This document shows positions 6,078-32,200 of a stretch of DNA of 64,000 nt, in pieces. Source of the DNA: Candidatus Obscuribacterales bacterium (GTDB lineage Bacteria; Cyanobacteriota; Vampirovibrionia; Obscuribacterales; Obscuribacteraceae). The notes under the pieces were generated by a model, which saw only the letters and a list, made by a program, of their open reading frames with translations, ran no database searches and was not told the DNA's origin. Made by a program: the position numbers and the translations under genes. The first letter of the stretch is position 1, and every line of letters begins with the position of its first letter. The stretch spans positions 1,088,001 through 1,152,000 of the forward strand of contig CBDDIJ010000002.1 in assembly GCA_965228855.1 (NCBI GenBank), written 5' to 3'.

Positions 6078-6304
6078 TCAGCAAACATCATTTCCTGTCA
6101 CCGAAAACTAAAACAGACCCGATTAGCTGCCTCGACAATTGTTCCGCTTGGGACCTGGTCGAAACGGTACCGAATGTGATACCGCGTCGTGCAGCAATTT
6201 TGTGTCGGAAGATGTAGTTGAGACGAGGCGAGAACCAACTCGCCCAGTGCCGCTAGCTCGTCCATCGGTAGATGTGATTCGCCGATGAGCGACAACTGTT
6301 TTCC
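6078..6304 (+). promoter_or_regulatory. Candidate conserved structured leader motif, copy A
   Basis: GCAATTTT 6194, GAAGAT 6208, hairpin GGCGAG/CTCGCC, GCTAG 6252, GACAACTGTTTTCC 6291; same order as the copies at ~13.2 kb and ~32.0 kb. Confidence 0.5.
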
Positions 6305-6365
6305 ACGCGCTGCTCGAAGTTCTCGAGCCGCACCGATCAACACAGGCAGGACTATTGGAGAATCC

Positions 6366-7445
6366 ATGTCCCAAAACGACCGCAACTCGCTTTCCAGCGT
6401 CGAAGTTCGCAAGGCGGCTCCGCAACGCAAATCCGTTACCATCTCTCGCGCTGACCTCGACTGGGCTTCCAGTCAGGGGCTCGTCGGCACCGACCAGGTC
6501 GGCAAGCTGTGGCAAGCACTCGTAGAGCGCTCGGCCGCAACCAACACCGGTGGTCTGAACCTCATCAACCTCGCCTACTACGGCGGCGCCACCATCGTGC
6601 TCATCGCCATGGCGCTGTTCATGGGGCTCGTCACCGCTCAGTACCAGGCTCCTGCGCTGGTCGGCACGTCGCTCGTCTACGGCGCCGCCTTCGTCGCGCT
6701 CGGCTCGCATCTCTTCTTCCGCAAGGGTCTCGAGGTGCCCGGCGGGCTGATGTTCACGCTTGCCGTGGCCATCACGCCGGTCTTCGTGTTCGCGGTCATG
6801 AACATGAACGGCGCCGCACCGCCCAGCACCTCTCAGGAGCTCATCCTCGAGGTGGTGACGGTGGTGGCGTCCGTGGTGGCGCTCACTTTCGTGCGCTTCC
6901 CGTTCCTGACCATGCCGCTGTTCACCGCGTTGTGGCTCATGAGCGTGACGATCACGAGCATGGTTTCGCACGGGCAGTCCTGGTTCTGGGGCAACGAACA
7001 GCTCATCGTCTCGATGGTGTTCGGCGTGCTCATGACTCTCGGCTCGGTCGTCATCGACCGGCGCACGGAGAAGGACTTCGCGTTCTGGGGCTACCTCTTC
7101 GGCGTCTCCAGCTTCTGGCTCGCGCTGACCTTCTTCGATAAGGGCGGACAGCTCGGCATGCTCGGCTACTTCGCCGCCAACATCGTGCTGTTGCTCGCCT
7201 CCGTCGTCCTCCAGCGCCGCATCTTCCTCGCTGCCGGCGGTCTCGGTGCGACCGGCTACCTGATGTACCTTTCGTGGGACATCTTCCAGGACTCGATGAT
7301 GGCTTTCGCCGTCGTGCTTTCGGGCATCGGCGTCGGCGTCATCTTCCTCGGTATCCAGTACCACAAGAACAAGGCTGCCATCGACGCTGCCATCCTGCGG
7401 CTTCTGCCCGCCGGACTGCGTTCGCTGCCGAATCGCCAGGGCTAA
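6366..7445 (+). CDS. DUF2157-like multi-pass membrane protein, GC-rich
   Basis: GGAGA RBS before ATG 6366; N-terminal DLDWASSQGLVGTDQVGKLW followed by about 10 TM helices; codons strongly C/G-ending. Confidence 0.75.
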   Translation: MSQNDRNSLSSVEVRKAAPQRKSVTISRADLDWASSQGLVGTDQVGKLWQALVERSAATNTGGLNLINLAYYGGATIVLIAMALFMGLVTAQYQAPALVGTSLVYGAAFVALGSHLFFRKGLEVPGGLMFTLAVAITPVFVFAVMNMNGAAPPSTSQELILEVVTVVASVVALTFVRFPFLTMPLFTALWLMSVTITSMVSHGQSWFWGNEQLIVSMVFGVLMTLGSVVIDRRTEKDFAFWGYLFGVSSFWLALTFFDKGGQLGMLGYFAANIVLLLASVVLQRRIFLAAGGLGATGYLMYLSWDIFQDSMMAFAVVLSGIGVGVIFLGIQYHKNKAAIDAAILRLLPAGLRSLPNRQG

Positions 7446-7457
7446 ACGCCCGAAACC

Positions 7458-7483
7458 GGAAGGCTCGGCTCCCCGAGCCTTCC
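7458..7483 (+). terminator. GC-rich hairpin after the DUF2157-like gene (C-rich tail, no U tract)
   Basis: GGAAGGCTCGG/CCGAGCCTTCC perfect 11-bp stem. Confidence 0.55.
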
Positions 7484-7578
7484 ACCCCCACCGACTTGCT
7501 ACTATATAATATCGGAAGGACTCCATCTCCAAGCCGAGTCCCAGCGAGGCATTCCCGTCCTGCGGTCAAGAGCCGGGG

Positions 7579-7637
7579 TGTTTTTGGCTACGCGTGAATG
7601 ACGCTTTTTCGAAAATCCGGCAACGAGGCGTAGACAA
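7579..7637 (+). repeat. Palindromic CTACG...CGTAG repeat, copy 1
   Basis: 55 bp identical to 7724-7778; homologous to copies at 22.6, 29.2, 32.5 and 32.7 kb. Confidence 0.9.
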
Positions 7638-7723
7638 GTCTTCCTACTATATAGTACCGAGTCTGCTCTGGCTCAAAAGTGAGTGCCGTTCAGGGGTTGC
7701 TGGGTTGGGACTTAAGTCCGGGT

Positions 7724-7785
7724 TGTTTTTGGCTACGCGTGAATGACGCTTTTTCGAAAATCCGGCAACGAGGCGTAGGCAAAAT
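7724..7785 (+). repeat. Palindromic CTACG...CGTAG repeat, copy 2
   Basis: Direct repeat of 7579-7633 at a 145-bp period. Confidence 0.9.
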
Positions 7786-7941
7786 GGCTTTTGCGCGCCT
7801 CGAGGTTGCTATGCGAATGCCTGAAACGTACTGCCCAAGCGGGTTAACGCAGAAGTAGGGCTATGCAAGAATATAGTAGACGATATGGGGAGGTTCGGGA
7901 TGGTGGTATATTCGTTTGGTTCTGATCATTGGGTGAGGTTT

Positions 7942-8346
7942 ATGCCCAAAATTTTGGTGGTCGAAGACAGTCCGATTAACCAGAAGGTGATGACCTACTT
8001 CCTCGAATCCAAGGGTTTCGAGTGCGACCTGGCAACGAGTGGGGCTCAGGCTTTGACGCTCGTTCATACTAACGAATATGACTTGATCTTCCTCGATTTG
8101 CGCATTCCGAATCTTGACGGTTTCTCTGCTGCTCGTGCCATTCGCGAGACGGGCTGCACCGTTCCCATCATCGCGGTGACGGCGAGCGCCATGCCCGAGG
8201 ATGAGAAGAATGCGATGGAGTCAGGCATGAATGCGTTTATGACTAAGCCGTTCTCGCGGGCGGATTTCGATTCGGCAATCGCAATGTGGCTCAAGCCGAG
8301 GCAAGGGACTGAAACCGAGTCTGCCGGCTCGATGGCGGATAGTTAG
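7942..8346 (+). CDS. Single-domain response regulator (CheY-like receiver)
   Basis: KILVVEDS, DLIFLD, PNLDG, IIAVTA, KPF. Confidence 0.92.
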   Translation: MPKILVVEDSPINQKVMTYFLESKGFECDLATSGAQALTLVHTNEYDLIFLDLRIPNLDGFSAARAIRETGCTVPIIAVTASAMPEDEKNAMESGMNAFMTKPFSRADFDSAIAMWLKPRQGTETESAGSMADS

Positions 8347-8435
8347 CCGTCTCTTTGAAGCAGTTCCAGGTCTAATTAAGGATCTAAACAGATTGCGCCC
8401 GAATTGCTAAACTCAATTACGTCAATAAAGCGTTT

Positions 8436-9020
8436 GTGGGAGTTGCGGTTTTGTGGACTAGATTTTTTGAAAGTTCTTGGCCGCAATGTACGTTGCGTAA
8501 ACCGGCTTCCCAGGAACTTCTCGAGAAGTGCGAAGACGAGCTGAATGTTTCGATTCCGCTGCCGCTTCAACAGCTCCTCCGTGAGACTAACGGAGTAGCC
8601 GATCCAAATAATGAGTGCTTGATCTTCTCTGTAGAGGAGATGCTCGAATGCACAGAGGATATGTGGTTCAACACCGACTACGAGCAGCGCTTCCAGCCGT
8701 TCGTAAGTCTTTTGTTTTTCGGAACCGATGCTAGCGACAATCTATTCGCTTATCCAATACTCGGAGATAGACCGGACAAGAGCAAGGTGTTCAAATGGCG
8801 TCGCGACAACGACAGTCGCATGTATTATGCAGATGGTTTGGAGCAGTACTTCTACAAGCGCTGGAAGTGTCTTGAACAGAGCGATCCATCTCTTTGGGAT
8901 CAGAAATTGTCGTGCAAGGATTTTGATGACTACAAAACATTTATCACCGGTGGTGGTGGCGCGGACTTTTCGCCCGACTTCGCGCCGGATAGCTCCACGC
9001 CCGGGTCAATGAGCGGTTAG
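8436..9020 (+). CDS. SMI1/KNR4 (SUKH) family protein
   Basis: PASQELLEKCEDELNVSIPLPLQQLLRETNG and FFGTDASDNLF. Confidence 0.75.
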   Translation: MGVAVLWTRFFESSWPQCTLRKPASQELLEKCEDELNVSIPLPLQQLLRETNGVADPNNECLIFSVEEMLECTEDMWFNTDYEQRFQPFVSLLFFGTDASDNLFAYPILGDRPDKSKVFKWRRDNDSRMYYADGLEQYFYKRWKCLEQSDPSLWDQKLSCKDFDDYKTFITGGGGADFSPDFAPDSSTPGSMSG

Positions 9021-9038
9021 CTCGAAAGTGGTTAATGT

Positions 9039-9986: not shown

Positions 9987-10117
9987 ATGAACTCCATTTG
10001 CCCGAATTGGTTCCGCCGAGCATTTTAATTTTAGCCGACTAAACCGTAGACCGCACCGGCGACTGAGCGTGACTGTTAAGACAGTATTGGACGGTCGCCA
10101 AGTAGTTGCGTCAATCC

Positions 10118-11737
10118 CTAATAACTTCCGGAAAACAAAAGAGTTCTAACTTTTTCCGCTTCGGTCTGCTGATTGTTCAATTCGTAAGAAGCCTGAAGGA
10201 GATCAAGAATTAGCTGTCGATTCGCAACGGGCGTTTGGCTGTTCATTCGCAGTTTTGCGAGTTCCAATAATGTAATGGCTTTCGCGATCTCGTTCTTCTT
10301 CAACGCTGCGCGCCCACCTTTCAGAGCCGTTCTGCATGAGCTCTGACGAATTTGTTCATCTTCCGGTCTAAATTTAAGTGCCTTCTCGAAGATTGAATTA
10401 GATTGCTCCCAAACGTTCATTCTCTCAAGATCTCGGGCGGTTGACAAATCTCTGTCAAAGTCAATTCCGCGAGTTCGGATATCGACCTCGTCCTTCTTTA
10501 TCCGAGCGTCTGAACTGGCAACGCTTTTCTGAGCCGCCGCCACTTTGGTCGCGTGTAATTCTCTCTTCTTCGTATCGTCGATGATTGCGTTCATCGCATT
10601 TATATCCGGCGCGGTGAGTTTCTCTAGCAGAGGTACTTGAAGCTGGAAGTACATGATGGTGTTTGGGTCAGGTAGGTGATCGGCGCCCAGGGCGTGCCCG
10701 ATTTCGTGAAGCGCCACGTTCTTCAGGTATTGTTGTCGAAAGGCAGGTTGGCTCGAACTTCGGTAAGTAAGTATGCGAATTTTGGCATGTTTCCTGGAGA
10801 GAGACCCATCCCATGTGCTCTGACACGTCCCAATTGCGTCTTTGCTTTTGGCGCCTAGTTTGTCCGGATGGTCCACCCATTCGCAGTCAATAGACGCTTC
10901 ACTTGCAGTTGGCACAAAGGCGAATTTTATACGATTACCCATTGTGCTCTGCCACATTTGAAACGACGCTACCAGGGCGCTTCTGTCGCCTTTAGCATAT
11001 CCGGGAATCTTCAAGCAACTGCTCTCGGTTGGTATAAAGACTTTCAGTGGAAACTTGGCTGTACCCCATCTAGCCTCCTTTTCGAACACTTCATCTTTAG
11101 CTTCGGACAGTGCTTGTTCGAGCGTTTTCTGATTCGCTGATCGAATGACTTTCTCTCTGGCGATTCTTTCTAGTGCTTGTTGAATTTCTTCGGCGGTCAT
11201 ATCCTCTCTAGGAGGCAATGTCGGCGGAGGGTGTACGAGTTTGTCGAGGCTGTAAATTCGCTGTTTGATTTGGATAATCGCGTGATGAGCCGGATAGGTT
11301 TTCTCTATGGAGCGAAGGGATTCCAATGCGCTTTCCTTGCGACTGAAGCGGATCTTCAGTAAGGCTTGCAGCAAAACAACATCGTCGCGCGGAGGCGTTG
11401 CCGAGCCTTTTGTCGCTCGTTTCGCGAGACCGTTCGAAAGAAACTCTAAACTTTCCGCGCTCGCTAGAAGTGGGTCACTGGAAGCGTTTCGCATTGCATA
11501 CATCAACCATTGATCGACCTCGTCCAGCCTGTTTCTCTTTATGCATTCGAGTGTCTTTCTCAAGACCTGCCATGTCACTTCTGGGTTCTTCTCAGCGGTG
11601 GTCTCTTCCATGAAGACCCGTCCATCAGGGTTCTCAATTACATTTCGTGCACAGGCCGCCGCTGAACTGCATGCGATAAACGCCACCGCTAGTAGTGTCG
11701 CGGAGGCTGTTGTTGAAGCGCGAAGGGACCCGTCCAT
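10118..11737 (-). CDS. Matrixin-family (M10-like) zinc metalloprotease with TPR-like flanks
   Basis: HEIGHALGADH metzincin motif with Met-turn IMY; N-terminal signal-like helix. Confidence 0.85.
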   Translation of the reverse strand: MDGSLRASTTASATLLAVAFIACSSAAACARNVIENPDGRVFMEETTAEKNPEVTWQVLRKTLECIKRNRLDEVDQWLMYAMRNASSDPLLASAESLEFLSNGLAKRATKGSATPPRDDVVLLQALLKIRFSRKESALESLRSIEKTYPAHHAIIQIKQRIYSLDKLVHPPPTLPPREDMTAEEIQQALERIAREKVIRSANQKTLEQALSEAKDEVFEKEARWGTAKFPLKVFIPTESSCLKIPGYAKGDRSALVASFQMWQSTMGNRIKFAFVPTASEASIDCEWVDHPDKLGAKSKDAIGTCQSTWDGSLSRKHAKIRILTYRSSSQPAFRQQYLKNVALHEIGHALGADHLPDPNTIMYFQLQVPLLEKLTAPDINAMNAIIDDTKKRELHATKVAAAQKSVASSDARIKKDEVDIRTRGIDFDRDLSTARDLERMNVWEQSNSIFEKALKFRPEDEQIRQSSCRTALKGGRAALKKNEIAKAITLLELAKLRMNSQTPVANRQLILDLLQASYELNNQQTEAEKVRTLLFSGSY

Positions 11738-11740
11738 TGT

Positions 11741-12886: not shown

Positions 12887-13129
12887 ATAATATCCATCCG
12901 AAAACTCACAGATACTCTACCCGGATTTTCAAGGTATTCCGAAGGTTTCAACTACCGCGAGATTAATTCCCTGGGAGCGTCGGCTGGGCATGGTTCTCAG
13001 TCCGATTACGCGGGTGTTTTGATCTTATAAATATCGAAAGCGCTCGTTTGGTGAGAGATCTTTTGGACTGAAATCATGACGCCAGTCATTCAGGTCTATC
13101 TAAAGCAGGCTACCGAGTGGTAACTTTGG

Positions 13130-13330
13130 GCACACATCATCTCTTTTATTTCTAGGGACGAAACACCACCAGCGCTTCAACCAAACGCTCAGATAGTTTT
13201 TTGCTGCAATTTTTGCGGTGAAAACAGCAACGCCTGTCGCCAGCCAATAGCTGAAGACCGAGATGATGTGCTTTTCGGCGCTCGGCGCCCAGGTGTTCCG
13301 CTAGTGTCGTTCGAGAAGACGTATTCGCGA
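13130..13330 (+). promoter_or_regulatory. Candidate conserved structured leader motif, copy B
   Basis: GCAATTTT 13206, GAAGACC 13253, hairpin GGCGC/GCGCC, GCTAG 13300, GAAGACG 13315. Confidence 0.5.
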
Positions 13331-13499
13331 GTGCCACTGAAGGCGGTGCCGTGTCGAAGTGGGTGTGGTGATTGCTTCGTGAAAAACCGTCGAGGCGATG
13401 ATGATTTGGCGGTGCTTGCGCGGGCGGTGTAGCCCGTTGCGAAGTGCCGCTTGCAGCATTACGCGTCAGCGTATTAACTCCTTTTCGAAAGGGAAAGCC

Positions 13500-14630
13500 A
13501 TGAAGAGAGCGCAAATTCTCTTGATTCTTGCAGTTTGCTTCGGCGTCTCAAATGCCGAGGCGAAGGGACCGGGCGGCCAGCATGGAGGCGGCCAGGTTCA
13601 CCATGGAGGTGGGAACGGACCTCGTGTGCAGCCGCATGTTCCGCGCGTGCAGCCGAACATCCCGCGGACGCAGCCGCATGTTCCGCGCGTGCAGCCGAAC
13701 ATCCCGCGGACGCAGCCGCATGTTCCGCGCGTGCAGCCGAACATCCCGCGTGTGCAGCCGCATGTTCCGCGCGTGCAGCCGAACATCCCGCGGACGCAGC
13801 CGCATGTTCCGCGCGTGCAGCCGAATATTCCGCGCACGCAACCGCATGTTCCCCGCGTGCAGCCGAATATTCCGCGCACGCAACCGCATGTTCCCCGCGT
13901 GCAGCCGAACATCCCGCGCACGCAGCCGCATGTTCCGCACGTGCAGCCGAACATTCCGCGCCCGCAGCCGCAGGTTCCGCACGTGCAGCCGAACATCCCG
14001 CGCCAGCAGCCGAATGTTCCGCGCGTGCAGCCGAACATCCCGCGCCAGCAGCCGCATGTTCCGCACGTGCAGCCGAATCTGCCGAATCGCCTTCCGCACA
14101 ATTTGCCTCCAGTCCACGTGGGGCGCCCGAATCAGATTCCGCAAAATGTGCGTCCGTATCCGGTTCGCTGCGTGCCTGATCGGCAGCCGGTGCATTACCG
14201 AAACTATCGCCCGCCCGTCGTGCAGAACAATTTCTGTGCGCCTGTCTACGGTCGATACACCGGTCGGTACAATTCGCCGGTGAGAAACAGTTTGTTTAAC
14301 ACCGGGTTCTGGTTTGGCGGAACGTGTTATTCCGCAAACCCGTACTTTTCGTACGGCAACTACTGTCCGACCAGCTGGTTTTACTTCGGTAACAACTGCT
14401 GGTTTCGACCGGGTAGTGGTTACTCTTATTCGCCTCCAATCGGCTTCAACGACACCATCACGGTCGTCGTCGAAGAGCAGTACACCGAGATGGAGCTAGA
14501 CCCGTTTCTCGGCATTGAAGTGCCGGTGACCAAGACAGTCACCTGGTATTACAACGCCTACTACGACGCAGGAACGGGTTGGTACGGGTACACCGACTGT
14601 CATGGTCAATTCCATTGGCTTCAGTGGTAG
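13500..14630 (+). CDS. Secreted Pro/Gln/Arg heptad-repeat protein with an aromatic C-terminal domain
   Basis: Purine-rich RBS before ATG 13500; signal peptide ending AEA; PRVQPNI/PRTQPHV repeats; Tyr/Trp/Cys-rich C-terminus. Confidence 0.8.
   Translation: MKRAQILLILAVCFGVSNAEAKGPGGQHGGGQVHHGGGNGPRVQPHVPRVQPNIPRTQPHVPRVQPNIPRTQPHVPRVQPNIPRVQPHVPRVQPNIPRTQPHVPRVQPNIPRTQPHVPRVQPNIPRTQPHVPRVQPNIPRTQPHVPHVQPNIPRPQPQVPHVQPNIPRQQPNVPRVQPNIPRQQPHVPHVQPNLPNRLPHNLPPVHVGRPNQIPQNVRPYPVRCVPDRQPVHYRNYRPPVVQNNFCAPVYGRYTGRYNSPVRNSLFNTGFWFGGTCYSANPYFSYGNYCPTSWFYFGNNCWFRPGSGYSYSPPIGFNDTITVVVEEQYTEMELDPFLGIEVPVTKTVTWYYNAYYDAGTGWYGYTDCHGQFHWLQW
13620..14081 (+). repeat. Coding tandem repeat, 21-bp unit (42-bp higher-order unit), about 22 units
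   Basis: CCGCGCGTGCAGCCGAACATC alternating with CCGCGGACGCAGCCGCATGTT. Confidence 0.95.
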
Positions 14631-14697
14631 TGGCGCTTGTGGTGTCACTTCGCTGCGCGGAGACGTTTCTACGCGTTTGAGGTGACTGGAAAACAGC

Positions 14698-22630: not shown

Positions 22631-22686
22631 TGTCTACGACAGAATGCCGAATTCGGAGAAAAGCGTCATTCTGTCGTAGACAAAAT
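22631..22686 (-). repeat. Palindromic CTACG...CGTAG repeat, copy 3 (perfect 16-bp inverted repeat)
   Basis: TGTCTACGACAGAATG 22631-22646 / CATTCTGTCGTAGACA 22667-22682; minus strand reads TTTTGTCTACG..GAATGACGCTTTT..CGGCA..CGTAGACA. Confidence 0.85.
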
Positions 22687-22771: not shown

Positions 22772-25700
22772 TTAAAGCTCTGCCATGCAGGTCACCTGTG
22801 GTTTCGGGTGACGGCAGAACTGGCTGCCGCCGGACTGCAGGTGCATCAGCACAGCTGTTGTTTTCAGCAGTTGCTTTGCTGTTCGTCTGGCGTGTGGCTG
22901 ATTCGATTGCATGAGCTCGCGCAGCGGAAGTATTGCAGACATCGCTGAGGGAATCGAATATTGGCTACTGAAGGCTTTTAAACCGTTCTCGAGCGACTGC
23001 GACGAAACGTACCGGTGACTGATCGCATCAGCCGGGTTAATCTCTGCCAGGCTGCCAATCGAATCCTTTGCGATCACAGCGCTTTCGCCCGGCAATACTT
23101 TGATGCGCTTGCCGCCAGCGGTGACGCTCACGGAATTGCTGTTCTGATCGTGCAGATTGTAGACTGCAATGCCGTCGGAGAAGGCGAGCACAAGAGCGAT
23201 AGAGCCTGCACCGACCTTTACCGATCCGAATTGCGTTTCAATACATCTGTCCTTTTCCGGAGCGGCAAGAATGCTTCCCCTCTGTAGGTTGAAGCTAGAC
23301 GCGGATGTGAAGCCGGTTTCGAGGATTCCCGGGATAGCACCACTTTCGAGTTCCGTTTCGCTCTTCCAGCCTTTCTTGAATTTGGTACCAAATTCGGTGG
23401 CGGTGAGAATGGGCGACGACGAACCGGAGATTGTGTTTATCAAACCTATTTCGCCCAAGGAAAACGCGTGTGCGCCTGTCTGTCCGCCTGCAATCTCAAG
23501 GAGCATCTCGGCGTTTTGAATTTGAGAATCAAATGTGTTTGTTAAACCGACTGAAATTGCAGGTTGAATCTCAGGCAGAACCGAGAGAGAGTCATTCGAT
23601 GAAACACCCGCACTGGCTTGGCTTGCAAGCACCTGCCCGTAATTAGCACCTCGGCGCGCCACGGTATTTGTGGCGGACAGCGTCGGTGCCGGAGCGGGTG
23701 GGTCGGCCGTAATTGAGACAGCGTCGTTTACTATGATCGCGCCTGGACCTGCTTTGCCAGCACTGAAGATGACATTGCCATTGATTAGGTTTATTGTGCT
23801 CGAACCGTTAGTAGTTATGCCGTTATTGAAGAAGACCGTTCCTCCGGAACCGTTAATCGTTACGCCTGAAGGAGTTGTTCCTGTCACCAATGGTGGTGGC
23901 AAGGTTCCGATTACGAATTGCACAGTACCTCCGCCGATAGAAGTTGAAAAGCTTGCGACAGAAGACAGAAAGCCCAGAGTGATAGAGGAGCCTTTCCCCT
24001 TGCCCAGGTTGTTGAGCGTGATTTCGCCATCGGTGGAAGTTATGCTGGCAAATGAGTTTAGATTCATGGCGCCACCGCCAGTGATGATAGTCACTGACTT
24101 GCCCGTCACTCCGGCGATGTTGATTCCGGCTGATGCCGAGATGTTGACGTCTCCTCCGCCTGCTACAGTTCCCAATTCCAGCGTTGTTTTCTTTGCCAGG
24201 CTTGCGATGTTGATGGCGCCGGATGAGCCAGCAAAAGCATTCGCTATTAGGTTAGTCGTTTGAACTGCCAGGGGCACGGCGCTGCTACCCAACGCGCCTC
24301 CTAGACTACTATCAAAGTTGACGGAACTTGCCGGACTTTCAGTGGTCAGGATTTTCACCTTTGTAGATGCTTGAGTGATATCTCCTGCTACCGCCTGCAG
24401 AGCGATTGAATTGGTTGATTTTGTTGAGCCTATGCTGGTGTTTAAGACAATTGCACCACTCTTTATGGCGATGGTCAGAGCCGAACTCAGTTTTGCGTTG
24501 ACGGTCACAAGATCGTCTGAAGTCAAAGATACGTTGCCTTTAGAGGTGCTCTCCACAAAATTGAGAGGACCAGCTGCCGAATTATTCGCGCTCACGTCGC
24601 CTGCGGCGTTCAGCGAGAGGTTGATTGCAGCGGTCTTGATGGGGGTGGCGAGACTTCCGATAGTTCCGGCGTCTGCAAACAAAACAATCGTGCCTGCAGA
24701 TAGCCCGCTCGAGGCCGGATCGTTCTGTATGGAAGAGCCAGCTCCTTTGCCTGTGCTTATTTCAATTTTGCCGTCATTACTGGTAGTGACACTTCCGGCT
24801 GCACCGAGGTTGATGATACTGTCGACCCCGGTGCTTGTGAGTATGACATTGAAACCGCTGATAGCGTTGTTGATCTGAATTGCGCCGGTCGATTCGAAAA
24901 TAAACTCTCCGGCGGTAGAGCCGGAAGCGCCCAGAGTGACCGCGGCCGCAGTATTGGAGAGGTTTACGCTGTCGCCACCATTGGCGGTGATGGTTTGAGC
25001 GCTGACGCCGAGTGCCTTCTTGCCGCCAATCACTCCGGTTTGCGTCGAGAGATTGAGGGTATTCGCTGTAATCGATTTCTTGCTTGTAATATCACCGGTG
25101 CCTGTAACGGTCAAAGTGATCTGGCTGGTAGTCGCGTTGCCCAGTACGTTGCCGAGAGTTATACTTCCATTGTTCGCACTGAATGCGATACTATCGAAAC
25201 CGAGAAGATCTCTTGAGAGTGTCACACCGCCACCATTATTGGTGACAGTCAGGTCGCCGGCTGAGCTGCCATTGGCTATCACGGTACCAAGAATTGCGTT
25301 TGTGCCCTTCTTCGCGCCGAACTCAAAGGCAGTGGAACTGTTGGATTGAAGAACCACATTGCCACTTGCTCCGCTATTGCTGCCACCGCTCACGTCGAGA
25401 TCGCCTGTGATTAGAAGGGCTCCTGGTCCGCTCTCGCCGGCAACCAGCGTGACATTAGTGCCGCCGGCGTCAGCCGCGAACGGGCTGATATTCAGTGCGT
25501 TTGTAGCGACGGACAGGTTGCCGCCGGTTATGATACTGACGTTGCTTTGTGAGAGGATTTGGCTTCCGGCGCTGATTGAGAACTGTCCGTTAGCTGTTCC
25601 GATCGTCAACGGCGCCGTGCCCAGCTGATGCAGCGATAGGGAGCCGGCTCCGTCCCCCTGTCTCACACTTAAATTGACATTCTGTGTCGCGTCCGCGACC

Positions 25701-28700
25701 AGTTGTCCGGCTTCGATTGATATAACTCCGCCTGTTCCGAGGGCGGTAGTGCCGGCGTGAACGGCGCCGTTGCTGATGGTGACAATCTGGTTTGCTGCTG
25801 CTTTGAAGTTGATGTTTCCGCCGTTGGCTCCAAACGATCCGGTGGCGGAAAGCAGATAATCACTTCCTAGCGAAACGTTTGTTTGTCCGCCACGAAGTTC
25901 GAGTGTGATCGAACCGCCGGCGCCTCCGTCGATGCCGTCAGCATAGAGCGCTAGAGGAGCCAACCCCGTGATGGAAATGTCGCTTGCTTTGAGGGTCAGG
26001 GCACCGCCGTTGAAACCGGAAGTCCCTTGCACGCTCAACAAATTGGTGGGCAAGTGGATGTCTCCATTACCGGCGTCAAAGAAGAGAGTTCCGCCTCTGC
26101 CGTTGCCGGGCGCGTAAAGGATGTTGCTTAGCGAGTTGATGTTGATGTCTTGATTTGAGATGAGGTAGATTGTTCCACCGTTCGTTGTTCCGTTTGCCGA
26201 GATCGAGTTGACGGAGTTTGTGCCGGCGCTGCCGATGTTGAGCGTGGTGCTGCCGAGCGCAGTTATATAAGCTGTTCCGCCGCTGCCGGATGGAGAGGAG
26301 GCCGTTAGATTGTTGAGGTGGACGTTGTTGCCCGCGAGGACATAAATGCCGGCTCCGACGGCTTTGAGGTCGTTTGCTGATATATCGGCGGTATTCAACG
26401 TCGAGGTAGTGTTAAACGGATCGCCAGAGAAAATCTGGGCTACCTGTAGACTGATGTTTATGTTGCCTGATGGCGCTACATATGGTTGTGCTGTCTGCAG
26501 CTGCACTCCACCGGGACCGAGTGCAGGCAATGGGCTGGGATTCGAACCGGTAGAGTCGATATCTCCTACCGATATGGCGGTTCCTGAGGTTTTGCCGGCC
26601 ACAATTTTGACTGTTCCATCGAGGCCGCTGCCGTTTGTTCCTGAAAGGATCGGCACATTGGTAGGAACCCTGATGTCGCCGGAGTTGTCACTGCCTGCGA
26701 ACGCTGCGAGCGTGATACCGAATGTGGAACCAGTTGTAACTGGTGCGCTGCGAAGTTCCGTTATCGGATTTGTTTCAAAATCGATTTTCCCTCCGGTCGC
26801 GGATGCGCCGGTTATGCTTACGCTGTCGCCGTTTGTGGTGAATTCGGCTCCGGCAAAAATGGTCAATGCACCGCTCTGCAGAGTTGTTGCTGAAGTTTTA
26901 ATCGCCAATCCGGGAGCCGCGGATACAATGTCATGGCCGGAGAACATGCCGATGCCGCCTGGCGCTAGAACATCACCGTAAAGGGAAATTGTGTCGCCTG
27001 CGGCAAGACCAATACCGAGAGATGTGGCGGTTGACTGCAGAACGCCGAGAGCGTCTATTGTCGAATCCGTAGCAACTGAGATTCTGCCCGATGACATGAC
27101 ATCGCCGTTGATCACGATGTCCGCATTGCCAGGGTTCACAAAGCTTCCGACCAGGAAGTTGCCGGTCGTAATCGCGCCAGCCGAGTTGATGGTCATTACG
27201 GTGGACGAGTTTCCCAGAAATTCGGGATTTCCGTTGGAGATGAAGACGTTGCCGGCGCCGGTTCCGCCACTGTGACTGATACTACCGATGTTGATTCCAA
27301 TCCCTGAAGTTGCGCCGGCGGCGATTGAAACTAAACCATTTACGCCAGTGCCATTGCCGCTGGCGTCGATATTGCTTCCACTTGGAAGGAGTATGTTGCC
27401 TGTGCTTGCGTTGATGCCGTATGCCGCCAGGATTATGTTTCCTCCGGCATTGTTCCCTGCTGTGGAGTTGCTGTTGATTGCTAATGTTGCACCAGCACTG
27501 TTGAAATCGATGCTGCCGCCGGTGGCGCTAGCGCCTGTGAAGGAGATGCTGCCGGTCGTTGGTGTACCGGGAGGGAGTGAGGTCGTCTGTTCGGCCAGGT
27601 TGCCTGTGACGTTGGCGCCGGCGACGATAGTGATATCGTAACCCTTGCCTGCGCCATCCTGGGCTTGAATCAGGCTGACTCCTGAGGTCGCGACGATGCT
27701 TCCACTTGCTACGATGGCGAGTGCTTCTCCGACCGAGATGTCACCGGTCAAAGTGATGTTGCCTGCAGCGTTGAAGTAGGTGGGATCACCGGTCAAGCAT
27801 TGCTGGCCTATGATGAGATTATCCGTATTGGCATTGACATGAACAGCGGTGCCCGATGAAACAACTTCGCCGGTAAGTTTTTCTACATTGACATCGGCCA
27901 AGCCATTTCCGGCATTGATCAACAATCTGCGCGAAAGGAGATCGCCACCACTGATGGTGGTATTGGCTGAACCGGTGTAGGCTGCGGATCTGAGGGCTAT
28001 GTCTCCGTTGGATGCGGAGAGCACGCCTCCGTTGTTTTCGACATGAAGGGGCTGTGAGTTAAATGAGTCTAGAACGATGTTTCCGGACTGCGATGAGATT
28101 GTTCCGCTGTTGGATATGTTTTTAGATTCAAGTGATATGTCGTGCACAGCCGAGATGTTTCCGCCGTGATTGCTTAGATTGCCACCGGATTTGATGGCAA
28201 GACTGCCGGAGCTGCTAATCGTGCCCGCGTTGTCGAAATCAGCCAAAGTGGACATGGTGAGGTCAACTGTCGATGCTCTGGAGCGGTCGATAGTTGTTAT
28301 CGTTCCGGTTGCCTGGTTGTCGATGCTCTGGGCGGATATGACTGCCTGTCCGCTGTTGCCGCGAACGGTTTGGCTCACAGTTCCGTAGTTGATGAGGTTG
28401 CCAGAAATGTCTATTTGCGAGCGGCTGTTGACTCTATCAACTGATTGAACAGCTTCCGGGATGACCACGTTGTGGATTGAATTTGCCTGTCGGCCGCTTG
28501 TTAGGTTTGAAAGCGAGAATGTGCCACCTGTAGCCTTACCGCTTTGGTCAACTGTGAGCGTCTGTCCTCTGCCCGTTTGTGCCTGTTGGAATGAAACAAA
28601 CTCTGCAGCGGAAACGCTGTCACCCTGTTGGATGGTCTTTATTGAGTCTCCCACCTGAATGGTGACGGACGGACCGCGCCTGAACATATCTTGCTGGATC

Positions 28701-28987
28701 ACAATGGAAGCGAGGCTTGAACTGAGATCTAGATCGATCGGTGTTACCGAAGGGGCACTGTATGTGTTTATGACCGGCTGGTTGCGGCTTTCGTTTCTCA
28801 AATTCAGACGAGCCTGCGCGTTCTGCAGTTTCAAATTGTGGAAACCTACATGCGGCACGCGACCTTGGCGATCGAACTGATTGTCGTGTGCTAGTGCCGG
28901 CGCGGCAAATTGCTGGATTAGCACAGCCGAAGAGAACAGTTTCACTCCAAGCGAAAGCGACGTATCTTTATTCATAGATAACTCCAA
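22772..28987 (-). CDS. Giant secreted beta-solenoid (haemagglutinin-like) surface protein with FecR-like C-terminal domain
   Basis: 2071 aa; signal ending ALA; G/S/T/N-rich GGxIxL repeats; N- and C-terminal blocks shared with 49330-56931. Confidence 0.8.
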   Translation of the reverse strand: MELSMNKDTSLSLGVKLFSSAVLIQQFAAPALAHDNQFDRQGRVPHVGFHNLKLQNAQARLNLRNESRNQPVINTYSAPSVTPIDLDLSSSLASIVIQQDMFRRGPSVTIQVGDSIKTIQQGDSVSAAEFVSFQQAQTGRGQTLTVDQSGKATGGTFSLSNLTSGRQANSIHNVVIPEAVQSVDRVNSRSQIDISGNLINYGTVSQTVRGNSGQAVISAQSIDNQATGTITTIDRSRASTVDLTMSTLADFDNAGTISSSGSLAIKSGGNLSNHGGNISAVHDISLESKNISNSGTISSQSGNIVLDSFNSQPLHVENNGGVLSASNGDIALRSAAYTGSANTTISGGDLLSRRLLINAGNGLADVNVEKLTGEVVSSGTAVHVNANTDNLIIGQQCLTGDPTYFNAAGNITLTGDISVGEALAIVASGSIVATSGVSLIQAQDGAGKGYDITIVAGANVTGNLAEQTTSLPPGTPTTGSISFTGASATGGSIDFNSAGATLAINSNSTAGNNAGGNIILAAYGINASTGNILLPSGSNIDASGNGTGVNGLVSIAAGATSGIGINIGSISHSGGTGAGNVFISNGNPEFLGNSSTVMTINSAGAITTGNFLVGSFVNPGNADIVINGDVMSSGRISVATDSTIDALGVLQSTATSLGIGLAAGDTISLYGDVLAPGGIGMFSGHDIVSAAPGLAIKTSATTLQSGALTIFAGAEFTTNGDSVSITGASATGGKIDFETNPITELRSAPVTTGSTFGITLAAFAGSDNSGDIRVPTNVPILSGTNGSGLDGTVKIVAGKTSGTAISVGDIDSTGSNPSPLPALGPGGVQLQTAQPYVAPSGNINISLQVAQIFSGDPFNTTSTLNTADISANDLKAVGAGIYVLAGNNVHLNNLTASSPSGSGGTAYITALGSTTLNIGSAGTNSVNSISANGTTNGGTIYLISNQDININSLSNILYAPGNGRGGTLFFDAGNGDIHLPTNLLSVQGTSGFNGGALTLKASDISITGLAPLALYADGIDGGAGGSITLELRGGQTNVSLGSDYLLSATGSFGANGGNINFKAAANQIVTISNGAVHAGTTALGTGGVISIEAGQLVADATQNVNLSVRQGDGAGSLSLHQLGTAPLTIGTANGQFSISAGSQILSQSNVSIITGGNLSVATNALNISPFAADAGGTNVTLVAGESGPGALLITGDLDVSGGSNSGASGNVVLQSNSSTAFEFGAKKGTNAILGTVIANGSSAGDLTVTNNGGGVTLSRDLLGFDSIAFSANNGSITLGNVLGNATTSQITLTVTGTGDITSKKSITANTLNLSTQTGVIGGKKALGVSAQTITANGGDSVNLSNTAAAVTLGASGSTAGEFIFESTGAIQINNAISGFNVILTSTGVDSIINLGAAGSVTTSNDGKIEISTGKGAGSSIQNDPASSGLSAGTIVLFADAGTIGSLATPIKTAAINLSLNAAGDVSANNSAAGPLNFVESTSKGNVSLTSDDLVTVNAKLSSALTIAIKSGAIVLNTSIGSTKSTNSIALQAVAGDITQASTKVKILTTESPASSVNFDSSLGGALGSSAVPLAVQTTNLIANAFAGSSGAINIASLAKKTTLELGTVAGGGDVNISASAGINIAGVTGKSVTIITGGGAMNLNSFASITSTDGEITLNNLGKGKGSSITLGFLSSVASFSTSIGGGTVQFVIGTLPPPLVTGTTPSGVTINGSGGTVFFNNGITTNGSSTINLINGNVIFSAGKAGPGAIIVNDAVSITADPPAPAPTLSATNTVARRGANYGQVLASQASAGVSSNDSLSVLPEIQPAISVGLTNTFDSQIQNAEMLLEIAGGQTGAHAFSLGEIGLINTISGSSSPILTATEFGTKFKKGWKSETELESGAIPGILETGFTSASSFNLQRGSILAAPEKDRCIETQFGSVKVGAGSIALVLAFSDGIAVYNLHDQNSNSVSVTAGGKRIKVLPGESAVIAKDSIGSLAEINPADAISHRYVSSQSLENGLKAFSSQYSIPSAMSAILPLRELMQSNQPHARRTAKQLLKTTAVLMHLQSGGSQFCRHPKPQVTCMAEL

Positions 28988-29096
28988 TTAAAACTGCCCC
29001 AATCGCCGTGACTCGGACACAGGGTGCCCAGGCGAGATTGAGGTGGTGAGCGCAACGTGCAGATTATATTACTATGTCGCGAAACTTTCAAAACTA

Positions 29097-29180
29097 CTAC
29101 TATAGAGCTCCGCACAAGACGTGACTCGAAACAGGGCTGCTACTATAGAGCTCCGCACAAGACGTGACTCGAAACAGGGC
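29097..29180. repeat. Perfect 41-bp tandem duplication (period 43)
   Basis: CTACTATAGAGCTCCGCACAAGACGTGACTCGAAACAGGGC at 29097 and 29140. Confidence 0.95.
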
Positions 29181-29224
29181 ATACGCCGAGACTCACACTC
29201 CTCGCCCTCCTTCGCGGCATTCGA

Positions 29225-29279
29225 TTGTCTACGACCGAATGCCGGAATTCGCGAAATCCGTCGCTCTCCCGTAGCCAAA
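29225..29279 (-). repeat. Palindromic CTACG...CGTAG repeat, copy 4
   Basis: Minus strand TTTGGCTACG...GACGGATTTCGCGAATTCCGGCATTCGGTCGTAGACAA. Confidence 0.85.
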
Positions 29280-29389
29280 GCCCGTCTTTTCGAGGCAACC
29301 GAGGAGGTTAAAACGTCGAAAGCCCATCTAGGCGTGCGCGGACGGCTTTGTGAGTATATGTCGGCATATAGTAGGCGGGGTGTGAGGGG

Positions 29390-29412
29390 CAGGAAGCCGG
29401 AAAGGCTTCCTG
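29390..29412 (-). terminator. Hairpin ending the GC-rich operon (C-rich tail)
   Basis: CAGGAAGCC/GGCTTCCTG 9-bp stem just after the stop at 29423. Confidence 0.5.
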
Positions 29413-29422
29413 GTATTGCGTT

Positions 29423-29746
29423 TCATTCGTGGTCGGGCTTCAGGAAGATCCTGTTCGACCAGAAGCTTGCGGTTGTGAGACCGAGGGCACTGCCGCTGGC
29501 CATAGCCAGAAGCGTCATGGCAGTGTAGCCTGCGATGTAGGGATTCAACCCGATAGCGGAGAGCGCGTCGATGAGGACCTCGGACTCCTGTGCGTAGAAG
29601 ATAAGTCCGAGGTTGATGTACGCGATGGAGAGCCAAGTCACGAGGGGAGGAATCGGCCCGCGCGATGCGACGGATTTGCTGATCAGGATGCCGGCGACGA
29701 AACCAGCGCACGCAAACAGGAGAATGGCGATGTTGAGCTCGTTCAT
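29423..29746 (-). CDS. Small three-TM hypothetical membrane protein
   Basis: AAGGA RBS; three hydrophobic segments. Confidence 0.7.
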   Translation of the reverse strand: MNELNIAILLFACAGFVAGILISKSVASRGPIPPLVTWLSIAYINLGLIFYAQESEVLIDALSAIGLNPYIAGYTAMTLLAMASGSALGLTTASFWSNRIFLKPDHE

Positions 29747-29781
29747 GAACGTTTTCCTTGTTCTCGCGTTGAAGCAGTTGC

Positions 29782-30207
29782 TTAGCCGTGGAATGCCGGC
29801 TGTCTCGTATACTCGAGCCAGACGTTGATCTGCCCGTCGTCGTTGGCGTACGGGTTGATCTCCATCCGGATGCCCTGCGCCGCCAGCCGCTCGGTGGCAG
29901 CCGCCAGCACGCCGGGCGTCGGGTAGAAGTTGATGTACTGGTTGGTGCCCTTCGAGATCGTGCCGCTGCAGGTGCGACGGGCGAGTTCGGCGGCCATGTC
30001 GTCGACCCAGGCGAGCGGGTCGGTCGACTTGCCGGAGGCGGCGTGCTTGGCGAGAGCCGTGTGCACGACCGGGTCGAAGCGCGTGTTGATGTAGACGATG
30101 AGCTCATCGGGACCGCAACGGCGAGCGCTGCGTTCGATGGTGACGGGGTTGACGAGGACGCGCAGGTGTTTGACACCTGTGGGTTCGCCGATGGTTGCTA
30201 CAAACAT
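29782..30207 (-). CDS. Hypothetical protein (GC-rich operon)
   Basis: GGAAAGG RBS before ATG 30207 (MFVATIGE); strong C/G codon-ending bias. Confidence 0.7.
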   Translation of the reverse strand: MFVATIGEPTGVKHLRVLVNPVTIERSARRCGPDELIVYINTRFDPVVHTALAKHAASGKSTDPLAWVDDMAAELARRTCSGTISKGTNQYINFYPTPGVLAAATERLAAQGIRMEINPYANDDGQINVWLEYTRQPAFHG

Positions 30208-30255
30208 GGCATTACCTTTCCTGTTTGAATGCCGTATAAGCTGCGCAGGCGCTGA

Positions 30256-30290
30256 GCAGAGAGGAGGCGACCGAAGCCGCCCCCTCTCTT
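30256..30290 (-). other. Intergenic hairpin with a cUUCGg tetraloop
   Basis: Minus strand GAGAGGGGCGGC-TTCG-GTCGCCTCCTCTC. Confidence 0.6.
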
Positions 30291-30312
30291 GTCTCAACGG
30301 CTCATGCTGTTT

Positions 30313-30960
30313 TCAGAACAGCGTGAGCTGGTCCGGGTGGACCTTCTGCTTGCGGCGCCGAGTGCGCGGCTTTGCGAAGGTTCCGGTGGGCGGAACCTGC
30401 GCCGTCTTCGCCGCGACTGCCGGGGCGGAGGTGGTCACCGTCACGGTCACTGTCACCGTCGCCGGGGCTTCGGTGCTCTCCGGTGCCGTGGACGCGGTCG
30501 GTTTCGCCACTGGAGCGACGTCCGTCTTCGTCTCGACCGGCTTGACGACAGGCGCAGCAGCCTTCGTCGTCTCGGGTTTCGCTGCCAGCGCCGGCGCCTT
30601 CATCGTGAAGTTGCAGCCCCAGGTGCCGTCTGCGCGGACCCTGGCGGTCTGGTTCTTCAGTTGGGCGATGGCGTCGAAGCAACGGCGCGCCTTGATGGGG
30701 CGCTCGTCGAACGAGTCGTAGCGAACATCGCTGTCCGCCACAACGTTGAGGCGAAACGTCCGCCACTTCTTGCCGTCGAAGATGGCGGAGCGGAACTGCC
30801 CGGACCACACTCGAGCGCCAGGCTTGAGGTGGCACCAGAGCTTCATGTCGCCGACCTTGGCATTGCGCTGAACCAGCTCCCGTGACGGAAAGATTTCCGC
30901 CAGGGCACCAGTCACGAGCGTTCTGCCGGTCAGCACGATCGGTTCTTTGCTGTCTTTCAT
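30313..30960 (-). CDS. Hypothetical protein with A/T/P-rich linker, basic patch and C-terminal QLTLF
   Basis: AAGGAG RBS; 215 aa; codon bias matches neighbours. Confidence 0.75.
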   Translation of the reverse strand: MKDSKEPIVLTGRTLVTGALAEIFPSRELVQRNAKVGDMKLWCHLKPGARVWSGQFRSAIFDGKKWRTFRLNVVADSDVRYDSFDERPIKARRCFDAIAQLKNQTARVRADGTWGCNFTMKAPALAAKPETTKAAAPVVKPVETKTDVAPVAKPTASTAPESTEAPATVTVTVTVTTSAPAVAAKTAQVPPTGTFAKPRTRRRKQKVHPDQLTLF

Positions 30961-30984
30961 AGATGCTCCTTTCTTTTTTTGGAG

Positions 30985-31803
30985 TTAGGAAAAACTACTG
31001 GAGGCTTCCTCCGCCCTCGTCATCGTCGCCACTTCCCACTGCCGCTGAACTTGCGGTTGCGGGGCGATTTGACGCTGACGGCAGAGTCCTCCATCCATGG
31101 CGCTGACCAGCGCGCGACGAGCGTCCGTCTCGAGCTCTTCGAGTTGGAAGCGGAGCGCGTCGCTGTCGTTGAGCTGCTCCACCATGGTCTGGAGCAGTTC
31201 AGTCAGGCTGTCGTAGCGAGCCAACCAGCGGCGCGCATTCAGGAAAGTGGCGTCGCCGTCGAGCCTCACGGCATCAACGACTTCGTCCCCACCCAGATGC
31301 GAACGCAGCGCCAGATAAGTCGCCACTGCACGGTCCCAGGCTTGCGGCTGGTTGGTGCGTGCGCGCCCGACATACGCCTCGATTGCCGCCGGCAGCTCGT
31401 CAGCTGCCACAGCCTGGCGAAGCGAGTCGATCGCGCGTGCTGCCTCGAGCGTGAAAGCCGCCTGTCTCCAGGCGTCGACCATCTCGGGCAGTTCTTCGGG
31501 CTTCTCAGGCTCCAGCAGGTGGAGCAGGAAGCGCTCGGACAACACACGGCGGAGACCGTCGGTTTCGTCCGAGTTCAGGGTCATGAGGTCGAATTCGATA
31601 AGCCCGTTCGAGCGGCTCGTGTTGAGCGTTTCGATGAGCTCGTGATACGCGTCCTCGACCTGGTCGTCCAGCGCGAGATGTTTCGCGCGTGCTTCGCGCT
31701 GACCGTCAGAACCGTCTCGCTGCAAGGCGAGCCAGTCCTCTTTCGCGGTCTCGCGATTCTGCAGCAGCGTGAGCAGCTGCGAGATTTTGAGTTTGAGTGT
31801 CAT
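30985..31803 (-). CDS. Hypothetical alpha-helical/coiled-coil protein
   Basis: GAGGAGG RBS; L/E/A/R-rich 272 aa. Confidence 0.7.
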   Translation of the reverse strand: MTLKLKISQLLTLLQNRETAKEDWLALQRDGSDGQREARAKHLALDDQVEDAYHELIETLNTSRSNGLIEFDLMTLNSDETDGLRRVLSERFLLHLLEPEKPEELPEMVDAWRQAAFTLEAARAIDSLRQAVAADELPAAIEAYVGRARTNQPQAWDRAVATYLALRSHLGGDEVVDAVRLDGDATFLNARRWLARYDSLTELLQTMVEQLNDSDALRFQLEELETDARRALVSAMDGGLCRQRQIAPQPQVQRQWEVATMTRAEEASSSFS

Positions 31804-31935
31804 GGTAATACCCTCCTCGAAGCGCAGCCCATCGAAGTCTCGCGACCTCGACCAACGCGCCTCATTTTTTTTTAGTCACGGTGAGTAAAACCGCATTCCG
31901 CTGTTGGCTGCGCACGCGCAACTTGCAACGAAACC

Positions 31936-32200
31936 GGAAAACCGTCTTCGCGTGCTAGCGAGAACGGTTTCTGGCTTTACGCCAGAGCGACACTTCACTG
32001 GTCTTCCAACAACGGCAGTTGAAAAATTGCGCTCAACAGACCGTCGTCTGCTGACCGCAATGCTCCAAGTAACGCGTAAGCTCGCGCTAGTTATTCCAGA
32101 ACTCGTTGATTAAAACTGGTTTGCAACGCGTTCAGCTCGCACAAGTCTGTCACCACCCGTGATACCGTCCCTGTCCGTGAAGGAAGGAGAAGTTTACTGA
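31936..32200 (-). promoter_or_regulatory. Candidate conserved structured leader motif, copy C
   Basis: Minus strand GCAATTTT (32030), GAAGACC (32006), hairpin TCTGGC/GCCAGA, CGCTAG (31960), GAAGACGGTTTTCC (31949). Confidence 0.5.

Follow-up and report, generated by a model that had tools for sequence, protein, structure and literature searches.

Why should three unrelated GC-rich genes on one short stretch of a bacterial chromosome look alike at their 5′ ends? The question arose in a window of 64,000 nucleotides (the whole stretch of DNA analysed, numbered from its first letter; positions 1,088,001 to 1,152,000 of contig CBDDIJ010000002.1, here C2) in the genome of a Candidatus Obscuribacterales bacterium (GCA_965228855.1; here G000, 8.2 Mb, 95% complete, contigs C1–C5). 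The Obscuribacterales are widespread, uncultured, non-photosynthetic relatives of cyanobacteria. Three units of the window, A, B and C, have long upstream regions in which an initial annotation had read the same ordered series of short blocks, and for these it proposed a cis-regulatory RNA, an antitermination or processing signal, or the 5′ end of a gene-carrying element. We find that the three leaders are not copies of one RNA family. The units belong to a class of genes rich in GC at third codon positions (GC3) that is confined to the surroundings of dnaA, in this genome and in two other genera. The explanation we favour, at roughly even odds (about 0.5), is that the class would be a co-regulated, codon-optimised feeding-phase regulon kept near oriC, and that A, B and C carry the unrelated long leaders of three of its members.

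No shared RNA family in leaders A, B and C

The blocks are literally present at the positions given in Table 1. The spacing of 44, 47 and 47 nt from GAAGA to GCTAG, the three hairpins before CGCTAG and the GTTTTCC continuation in A and C are all as the annotation had them; the last block is a different word in A. The homology read into their common order was not confirmed. The gap from GCAATTTT to GAAGA is uneven (14, 47 and 24 nt in A, B and C), MAFFT left the blocks unaligned unless the sequence ends were trimmed onto them, and the blocks occupy different structural roles in the predicted folds of the three leaders. BLASTN of the leaders against the genome found no homologous copies. A regular expression written from the blocks gave just three matches in the whole 8.2-Mb genome, every one inside the window, which is circular as evidence, and across 101 genomes the exact pattern had one additional match (in G071).

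How readily such a series arises by chance depends on how it is scored. On a loose ordered-block measure A, B and C score 12; of 4000 random triples taken from a pool of 122 comparable class leaders (400-nt upstream regions), 362 did as well. A strict pattern that was defined after the data had been seen (three blocks, at least 19 nt in total, one spacing within 4 nt) occurred in just 2 of 5000 random triples; among 656 triples lying within 30 kb it occurred once, in A/B/C, and about 0.26 such triples are expected in this genome. One such triple among 656 neighbouring ones is plausible by chance. Since the match is rare per triple and yet about 0.26 are expected genome-wide, conservation must decide.

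Conservation spoke against the blocks. In the sibling genome G007, whose unit A protein and unit C gene product (the C1 protein, distinct from contig C1) are 98–99% identical in amino acids to those of G000, CGCTAG is changed in all three leaders, GCAATTTT is altered in A and GAAGAC in B, and the block chain then scores 6 where G000 scores 12. An independent Illumina assembly (run X1, labelled algal bloom metagenome and probably DNA, which served for alleles only) has contigs that carry the same substitutions as G007 at 6197 and 6256 of leader A and skip 13240–13383 of leader B. The full five-block set was found in none of 14 upstream regions of A orthologues and none of 12 of C orthologues.

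Covariance models gave the same answer. The annotation had looked to such a model for further copies; ours, built from A, B and C (R1; eight genomes of the genus, with scores for 150 of up to 243 candidates in each), retrieved the three training sites, the G007 copy of A and one match at E 0.55, and a search of 1.04 Mb of the GC-rich domain gave nothing new below E 1.4 and no fourth copy. No one covarying structure common to A, B and C emerged, and a model built from the four closest leader C sequences (R2) misses A and B. Rfam had no match in the window at gathering score and none at E ≤ 10 within 5800–33000; at 11 orthologous loci it gave two weak matches, far below gathering scores. In leader C, the CGC and GAAGACG-GTTT blocks are the two arms of one covarying hairpin, GAAGACG-GTTT being the 3′ arm, and TAG is its variable loop. 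Short folds of A and C had shown a closing helix, GGAAGA/TTTTCC, for which the C orthologues gave no support.

The blocks are mostly coincidence, aided by shared composition. That A, B and C might nonetheless carry one homologous cis-acting RNA with the short blocks as its functional core draws on the rarity of the strict pattern, on the position of the three as adjacent units at the edge of a domain described below and on a purine-rich GA(A/G)GA stretch kept at one junction in C orthologues. Set against the broken blocks in G007 and X1, the orthologous leaders without the full set, the missing fourth copy and the failure of the C-family model in A and B, this possibility is already largely refuted, and we consider it very improbable. 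Nor was the 5′ end of a mobile element supported. What survives of the annotation is that these regions are long structured 5′ leaders and that the GC-rich units form a class. The word "orphan", which it applied to the units, was too strong: homologues of A occur in 19 of 60 relatives, and of the C1 protein in 16 of 103 family genomes.

A GC3-rich gene class around dnaA

GC3 was bimodal across the 6367 genes that our own simple gene caller predicted in G000, and values of 0.70 or more are almost confined to genes on C2 0–1.12 Mb, C4, C1 and the end of C5. We defined the class by 349 genes of C2 between 64 kb and 1.2 Mb, which excludes GC-rich genes of alphaproteobacterial type on C4 and C2 1–61 kb (these were still included in the first k-mer and position weight matrix, PWM, training sets). 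GC3 is 0.81 in the class and 0.56 in the 383 ordinary genes interleaved with it; comparison values are 0.54 for C3 genes and 0.56 for the ribosomal-protein region. The sole dnaA lies beside dnaN at C2 791–794 kb, where GC skew flips sign, and the class is confined to about 1.1 Mb around it. A, B and C are the GC-rich units of the window, as described. Unit C forms the right edge, being the last class unit on its chromosome arm; the next 1.47 Mb of C2 holds only two marginal open reading frames (ORFs) with GC3 of at least 0.70.

The same confinement was seen in two further genera, each represented by a genome on a single contig: G101 (43% GC, dnaA at 2832 kb, 35 samples of 20 kb) and G117 (dnaA at 2581 kb, 20 samples). 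With zone limits and GC3 thresholds that were chosen after the values had been seen, and dnaA positions that are independent of them, GC3 was at least 0.55 in 65 of 168 sampled ORFs at 2400–3120 kb of G101 (−430 to +290 kb relative to dnaA) against 7 of 342 outside that zone, and at least 0.68 in 19 of 103 ORFs at 1800–2770 kb of G117 (−780 to +190 kb of dnaA) against 0 of 194 elsewhere. A few GC3-raised ORFs of G101 lie outside the origin domain, at 310–390 kb near the terminus (L090, L134).

Membership in the class is inherited. Among G101 ORFs with a match, 21 of 31 class ORFs paired with G000 class genes (median identity 42%), compared with 3 of 57 ordinary ones; for G117 the figures were 6 of 11 and 2 of 34. 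A contrast kept at about 42% identity makes a passively ameliorating relic unlikely. The codon bias is also specific: A-ending codons are nearly gone, GGT, GCT and CGT remain in use, and genes most often end in TAA. Divergence between G000 and G007 at fourfold sites was 526/6132 (0.086) in 38 class genes and 376/2776 (0.135) in 18 ordinary genes. The final ~200 nt of class leaders are richer in GC, too (0.52–0.56 versus 0.46–0.48).

To compare gene content, Pfam scans covered 300 class proteins and 125 of 212 neighbouring ordinary genes, and matched counts were made by hand for 248 class and the 125 ordinary genes. The class contained 20 vWA, MoxR or DUF58 genes and the ordinary set none, while two-component, kinase and helix-turn-helix (HTH) genes numbered 0 in the class and 10 in the ordinary set. 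Peptidases made up 28 of 142 annotated class genes and 8 of 95 annotated ordinary genes (p = 0.026). The class also includes patatins, PLD, beta-oxidation, beta-amylase, isoamylase, nucleoside salvage, and SbmA-like and amino-acid transporters, along with citrate synthase, isocitrate dehydrogenase, PEPCK, S1 proteins, FtsH, ClpP, Pth and PrkA-YeaH-SpoVR. It leans to hydrolases, without signalling genes. Capsid, terminase, Rep, Par and conjugation families were absent from the Pfam matches of the 300 class proteins, where the only matches of a related kind were one to a holin family and one to a gp30.3 family. Four MoxR-DUF58-vWA operons, all of the GC3-rich class, were noted, two of which adjoin pairs of S41 peptidases (L173, L174, L190–L191, L196). 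In the literature covered, with subscription journals and supplements outside its scope, we found no prior description of an origin-confined GC3-rich class in this lineage; shown here in three genera, it is apparently so far undescribed.

An upstream palindrome, predicted promoters and gene-specific leaders

One block did lead to a class-wide signal. CGCTAG occurs upstream of 28 of 94 GC-rich units and 69 of 1528 controls, and expectation maximisation extended it to a near-palindrome, CT(C/A)GCGC(G/T)AG, with AG/CT flanks. Seeds taken from GCAATTTT, GAAGACG, GACAACTG and TCAGCAAAC drifted to motifs of low information; the sole seed to converge was GCGC(G/T)AG. Upstream regions with a site scoring at least 12 numbered 54 of 145 for the class, against 6 of 62 for ordinary genes of the domain and 26 of 869 for genes beyond it; such sites lie on both strands and peak 250–500 nt ahead of the start codon. 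The training sites of the matrix came from G000, which makes G101 out-of-sample, and there an unbiased word list was topped by the same words (GCTAGC in 16 of 41 versus 2 of 78, CGCTAG in 14 of 41 versus 3 of 78). CGCTAG is the core of a real signal; the signal behaves as a DNA palindrome lying 250–500 nt upstream, and the annotation's own three copies score below 10 on the matrix and are unconserved. In ordinary coding sequences the palindrome has a density of 0.073/kb in the domain and 0.054/kb outside. Anchor sites of the RacA/ram type were considered and rejected, the palindrome being tied to class promoters and hardly enriched in ordinary coding sequences of the domain, and consensus parS had no match.

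In A and C, as judged by eye, a conserved −35/−10 pair of sigma-70-like form follows a conserved site at a distance of about 100 bp. A palindrome scoring at least 10 occurs within 600 nt upstream at 11 of 15 A-homologue loci, G000 counted, and the stretch of promoter A is conserved upstream of A in G005, G006 and G002, though the leader differs. Upstream of C, the promoter columns TTG.T and GTA.G.T are invariant in eight orthologues from two genera, and GCGCTAT (32377–32371) is invariant in 8 of 8. These stretches may act as promoter and activator site; the promoter roles are predicted from conservation and resemblance. A second conserved element, at 32312–32352 on the minus strand, sits between the GCGCTAT box and the promoter of C in eight orthologues of two genera. 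Upstream of the A and C orthologues of G002, G005 and G006, tandem copies of a different palindrome of ~30 bp, often with a CGCTAG core, occupy the equivalent positions (L003, L033, L074). No −10 consensus specific to the class was found, only a generic TTG-N16-18-TA...T peak 200–250 nt upstream. Sigma54-dependent promoters were set aside, as RpoN (PF04552) was not found in G000.

A GC3-rich sigma factor belongs to the class itself. G000 has 19 sigma-70-family genes, one of which, at C2 706.8 kb, is a class gene with a GC3 of 0.80; its product is short, 275 aa (L116:6806–7633, minus strand). At 19 short-sigma loci from several genera GC3 is 0.64–0.84, as against 0.37–0.57 at six loci of RpoD length.

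Predicted folds are more stable for class leaders (median z −1.66, n = 109) than for controls (−0.79, n = 90), and leader C yields the clearest structure. We aligned it across seven genomes of the genus and one other genus. In its four closest sequences there were 42 predicted pairs, with 97% of cells paired and 8 pairs changed on both sides, and 0–4 of 500 shuffles reached the observed value on four of five measures, the fifth (further pair types) being unremarkable; these figures come from only four to five related sequences, and the structure was derived from those same sequences. R2 found the untrained G005 orthologue at 87.9 bits and scored the G001, G003 and G004 orthologues at only 6–7 bits, and in 1.04 Mb it missed all other leaders as well as A and B. 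The GACG-loop hairpin is kept in C orthologues, yet it is not among the common tetraloops of the class. Leader C is a gene-specific structured leader whose fold covaries among orthologues, with a predicted transcription start. No sequencing run registered as RNA was found to contain the stretch.

The fold of leader A has z = −2.67 (6185–6325); 9 of its 11 substitutions relative to G007 are unpaired or pairing-preserving, and the folding energy is no better than with random changes (25 of 60). For leader B, 14 of 16 substitutions are unpaired or pairing-preserving, and the G007 version folds better than 59 of 60 random mutants; its promoter was not located. The A leaders of G005, G006 and G002 and those of G001, G004 and G003 have different sequences behind a partly conserved promoter region.

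Gene A has no Pfam or NCBIfam match; its homologues within the family have GC3 of 0.68–0.87. Homologues of gene B occur in four of seven genus genomes, and its array of 21-nt repeats (13544–14173), which encodes 7-residue Pro/Gln units, varies in unit sequence and number among orthologues. The genes of unit C have no family matches, and the ESM Atlas gave no usable match for the C1 protein.

Table 1. Units A, B and C, their predicted control elements, and repeats in the window.
Feature	Coordinates	Strand	Details
Class palindrome of A	5958..5971		PWM 12.7/13.4; likely activator site, ~100 bp before predicted transcription start
Predicted sigma-70-type promoter A	6030..6058	+	−35 6030–6035, −10 6053–6058; placed by eye
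Leader A, predicted, ~300 nt	6065..6365	+	G-poor 5′ tract, then nested hairpins; blocks GCAATTTT 6194, GAAGA 6208, CGCTAG 6251
Gene A	6366..7445	+	359-aa membrane protein, GC3 0.87; DUF2157-like lead only (DUF2157 on 18% of one cluster)
Hairpin directly 3′ of gene A	7458..7483	+	likely 3′ end; seen in sequence
Leader B, ~380 nt	13120..13499	+	blocks GCAATTTT 13206, GAAGA 13253, CGCTAG 13299; palindrome scores weak, ≤10.7
Gene B	13500..14630	+	376 aa, predicted secreted, 7-residue Pro/Gln repeats, GC3 0.71
Unit C, four genes	31803–30985, 30960–30313, 30207–29782, 29746–29423	−	GC3 0.75–0.86
Leader C, predicted, ~460 nt	31804..32262	−	G-poor tract, then hairpin row; core 31890–32082; GACG-loop hairpin 32053–32034; blocks GCAATTTT 32030, GAAGA 32006, CGCTAG 31960
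Two class-palindrome matches within leader C	32090–32079, 32145–32134		PWM 16.2, 13.0
Predicted sigma-70-type promoter C	32269..32297	−	−35 32297–32292, 17-nt spacer, −10 32274–32269
Upstream box of C	32371..32389		~100 bp before −10; PWM 10.7
REP-like palindromic repeats, ~55 bp	7582–7638, 7727–7784, 22631–22685, 29225–29279, 32496–32551, 32714–32766		29225–29279 lies downstream of unit C
IS110-family element	32781–33743	−	adjoins ~55-bp repeat

The ~55-bp repeat is a feature of the origin domain, with 86 of its 103 genome matches in C2 0–1.2 Mb. All three identical copies of the IS110-family element in the genome sit 18–29 nt from it, which suggests that the repeat is the IS110 target; a second IS110 type (52% identity, four copies) is not adjacent to it. 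Alphaproteobacterial-type genes of the kind carried by integrative and conjugative elements (trb, relaxase, RepA, ParA, integrases) occur at C4 55–182 kb (L054–L060) and C2 1–61 kb (L061–L064) together with mercury and arsenic resistance genes and further genes of foreign appearance, and look like such an element or bin contamination. C3 724.5–728 kb has an array of ~21 tRNA genes, and C5 146.5 kb a tRNA-Sec call. Within the window, an X1 contig joins across the M10 peptidase gene (10095–11684), which is probably absent in the X1 strain. Two Gly/Asn/Ser-rich proteins of 2071 and 2533 aa (22772–28987 and 49330–56931) have ordinary GC3 and no Pfam match and are probably adhesin-like.

A proposed feeding-phase regulon and its competitors

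Under the regulon reading, a dimeric activator would bind CT(C/A)GCGC(G/T)AG roughly 100 bp upstream of a sigma-70-type promoter, which might be read by the class's own sigma. The transcript would begin with a G-poor tract and a gene-specific row of hairpins, probably stabilising the mRNA or tuning its translation. The products would break down and reuse the protein, lipid, starch and nucleosides of prey or lysate; codon bias would be maintained by selection for strong expression in the feeding phase, and the genes would stay near oriC for copy number or accessibility in that phase.

Published predators offer partial parallels, and here and below our statements refer to the parts of the sources that were covered. 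Vampirovibrio chlorellavorus is an algal predator whose ingestion phase uses hydrolytic enzymes (PMC4451040); it belongs to the same class of non-photosynthetic cyanobacterial relatives, in a different order. The covered part of that account mentions genes alien by codon usage and genomic islands, not an origin domain. Bdellovibrio has phase-specific programs, an ori-centred growth conformation and, in its compact state, transcription limited to accessible DNA (10.1101/2025.09.24.678257). Its attack- and growth-phase programs resemble the proposed regulon in being phase-specific expression in a predator; the lineage is unrelated, and the part of that report covered describes no origin-confined class with distinct codon usage. 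Among RNA regulators, riboswitches and other Rfam cis-regulatory leaders share with ours the long structured 5′ region, and in C the covariation. Our leaders differ from them in having no Rfam match and no common sequence core, each being gene-specific and turning over within the genus.

A number of observations weigh against the regulon. In G012 (58% GC; four samples) the class was not separable. The lower fourfold-site divergence of class genes fits selection, but skewed composition can give the same. Peptidases are enriched only modestly when all genes are counted (28 of 248 versus 8 of 125, p = 0.14), and 106 of 248 class genes (43%, against 30 of 125 or 24% of ordinary ones) have no Pfam match. 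No strong palindrome was found in 91 of 145 class upstream regions, B among them, nor upstream of 18 of the 19 short-sigma loci; no HTH regulator was found within the class, and the sigma paralogue has no close orthologue among the matches listed for G101, G001, G003 and G004. The G-poor tract is weak class-wide (7% versus 4%). The block pattern of A, B and C is, per triple, rare. In the literature covered we found no demonstration of predation by Obscuribacterales. Genes of the ribosomal-protein region, with GC3 of 0.56, are distant from oriC, so that neither ordinary growth-rate codon selection nor dosage explains the class, and its right edge is abrupt, unlike what dosage would lead one to expect.

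That edge is accommodated by a different account, in which a separate compartment, such as a forespore-like bud or a feeding cell, would at one stage of life receive only the ~1 Mb nearest the origin, or have only that part open. Genes needed there would have to lie in the segment and would evolve under the compartment's translation conditions. The account can stand together with the regulon reading, whose dosage step it replaces. It would fit the abrupt edge at unit C, the asymmetric spans of the class in the three genera (−0.43 to −0.78 Mb and +0.19 to +0.33 Mb) and the presence of PrkA-YeaH-SpoVR beside spare copies of housekeeping genes (citrate synthase, isocitrate dehydrogenase, S1 proteins, FtsH, ClpP, Pth, sigma). 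Several facts fit it poorly: the palindrome is tied to class promoters and is not domain-wide, a few scattered class-like genes lie on C5 outside the dense zone, and the long arm falls on different sides of dnaA in G000 and in G101 and G117. Nor do we know of any morphology for the Obscuribacterales, which counts against a compartment, or of sporulation in the order, a difference from the sigmaF system discussed next.

Two Bacillus systems offer a comparison. RacA of Bacillus subtilis binds a 14-bp palindrome from −412 to +200 kb (PMC4914108), a span similar in scale to those found here, and its ram sites share with our palindrome a GC-rich sequence concentrated in an asymmetric origin region. 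They differ in sequence, and a position 250–500 nt upstream of class genes is a better fit to a transcription-factor site. The Bacillus sigmaF regulon, the nearest known parallel to the class, clusters in the third of the chromosome that is trapped in the forespore (10.1101/381442). Like it, the set proposed here would be stage-specific, with a candidate sigma of its own, near oriC and interleaved with ordinary genes, many of its members being lineage-restricted or membrane proteins. Unlike it, the class consists mostly of hydrolases and metabolic spares and has a GC3 higher by 0.25, a trait not described for sigmaF genes in the part of that source covered. We regard the compartment as doubtful. 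Equally doubtful is its fullest form, a two-compartment life cycle in which only the origin-proximal ~1 Mb would be expressed in the feeding cell, so that several hundred genes with their own sigma, operator palindrome, structured leaders and codon dialect would make up a second program in the same chromosome.

Unlikely too, and slightly more so, is a domesticated replicon. On this view a GC-rich element of large size (plasmid, chromid or phage) would have inserted close to the origin in the ancestor of the family and then been interleaved with host genes by rearrangements, with codons, sigma, palindrome and repeats as its legacy. The genes of alphaproteobacterial type on C4 are broadly similar in codon usage to the class, the domain has a repeat family of its own, and the excess of class genes without a Pfam match would be expected of such an origin. 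A passive relic should have ameliorated, and high GC3 is instead kept at ~42% amino-acid identity and in a host of 43% GC; the viral, replication, partition and conjugation families listed above are missing from the 300 class proteins, and orthologue synteny is kept within the genus. Improbable is a mutational cause, by which class genes would be transcribed or repaired differently (for example mostly silent, or subject to biased gene conversion) and GC would rise without codon selection. The raised GC near the ends of leaders as well as at third positions, and the unbiased ribosomal-region genes, would suit it; the codon-specific nature of the bias and the barely affected interleaved neighbours would not. 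A single RNA shared by A, B and C, treated above, comes last.

The class explains why GC-rich "orphan cassettes" in these genomes look alike without a common RNA motif. Two codon regimes coexist here, with unusual clarity and in more than one genus, within a single region of the chromosome, which bears on how position, expression and base composition are coupled. We found no account of an Obscuribacterales life cycle in the literature covered. With nothing but sequence, GC3 combined with distance from dnaA singles out some hundreds of genes together with an operator and a candidate sigma factor, which probably belong to one life stage, and the resulting gene list allows direct tests of whether Obscuribacterales feed on algae or other cells.

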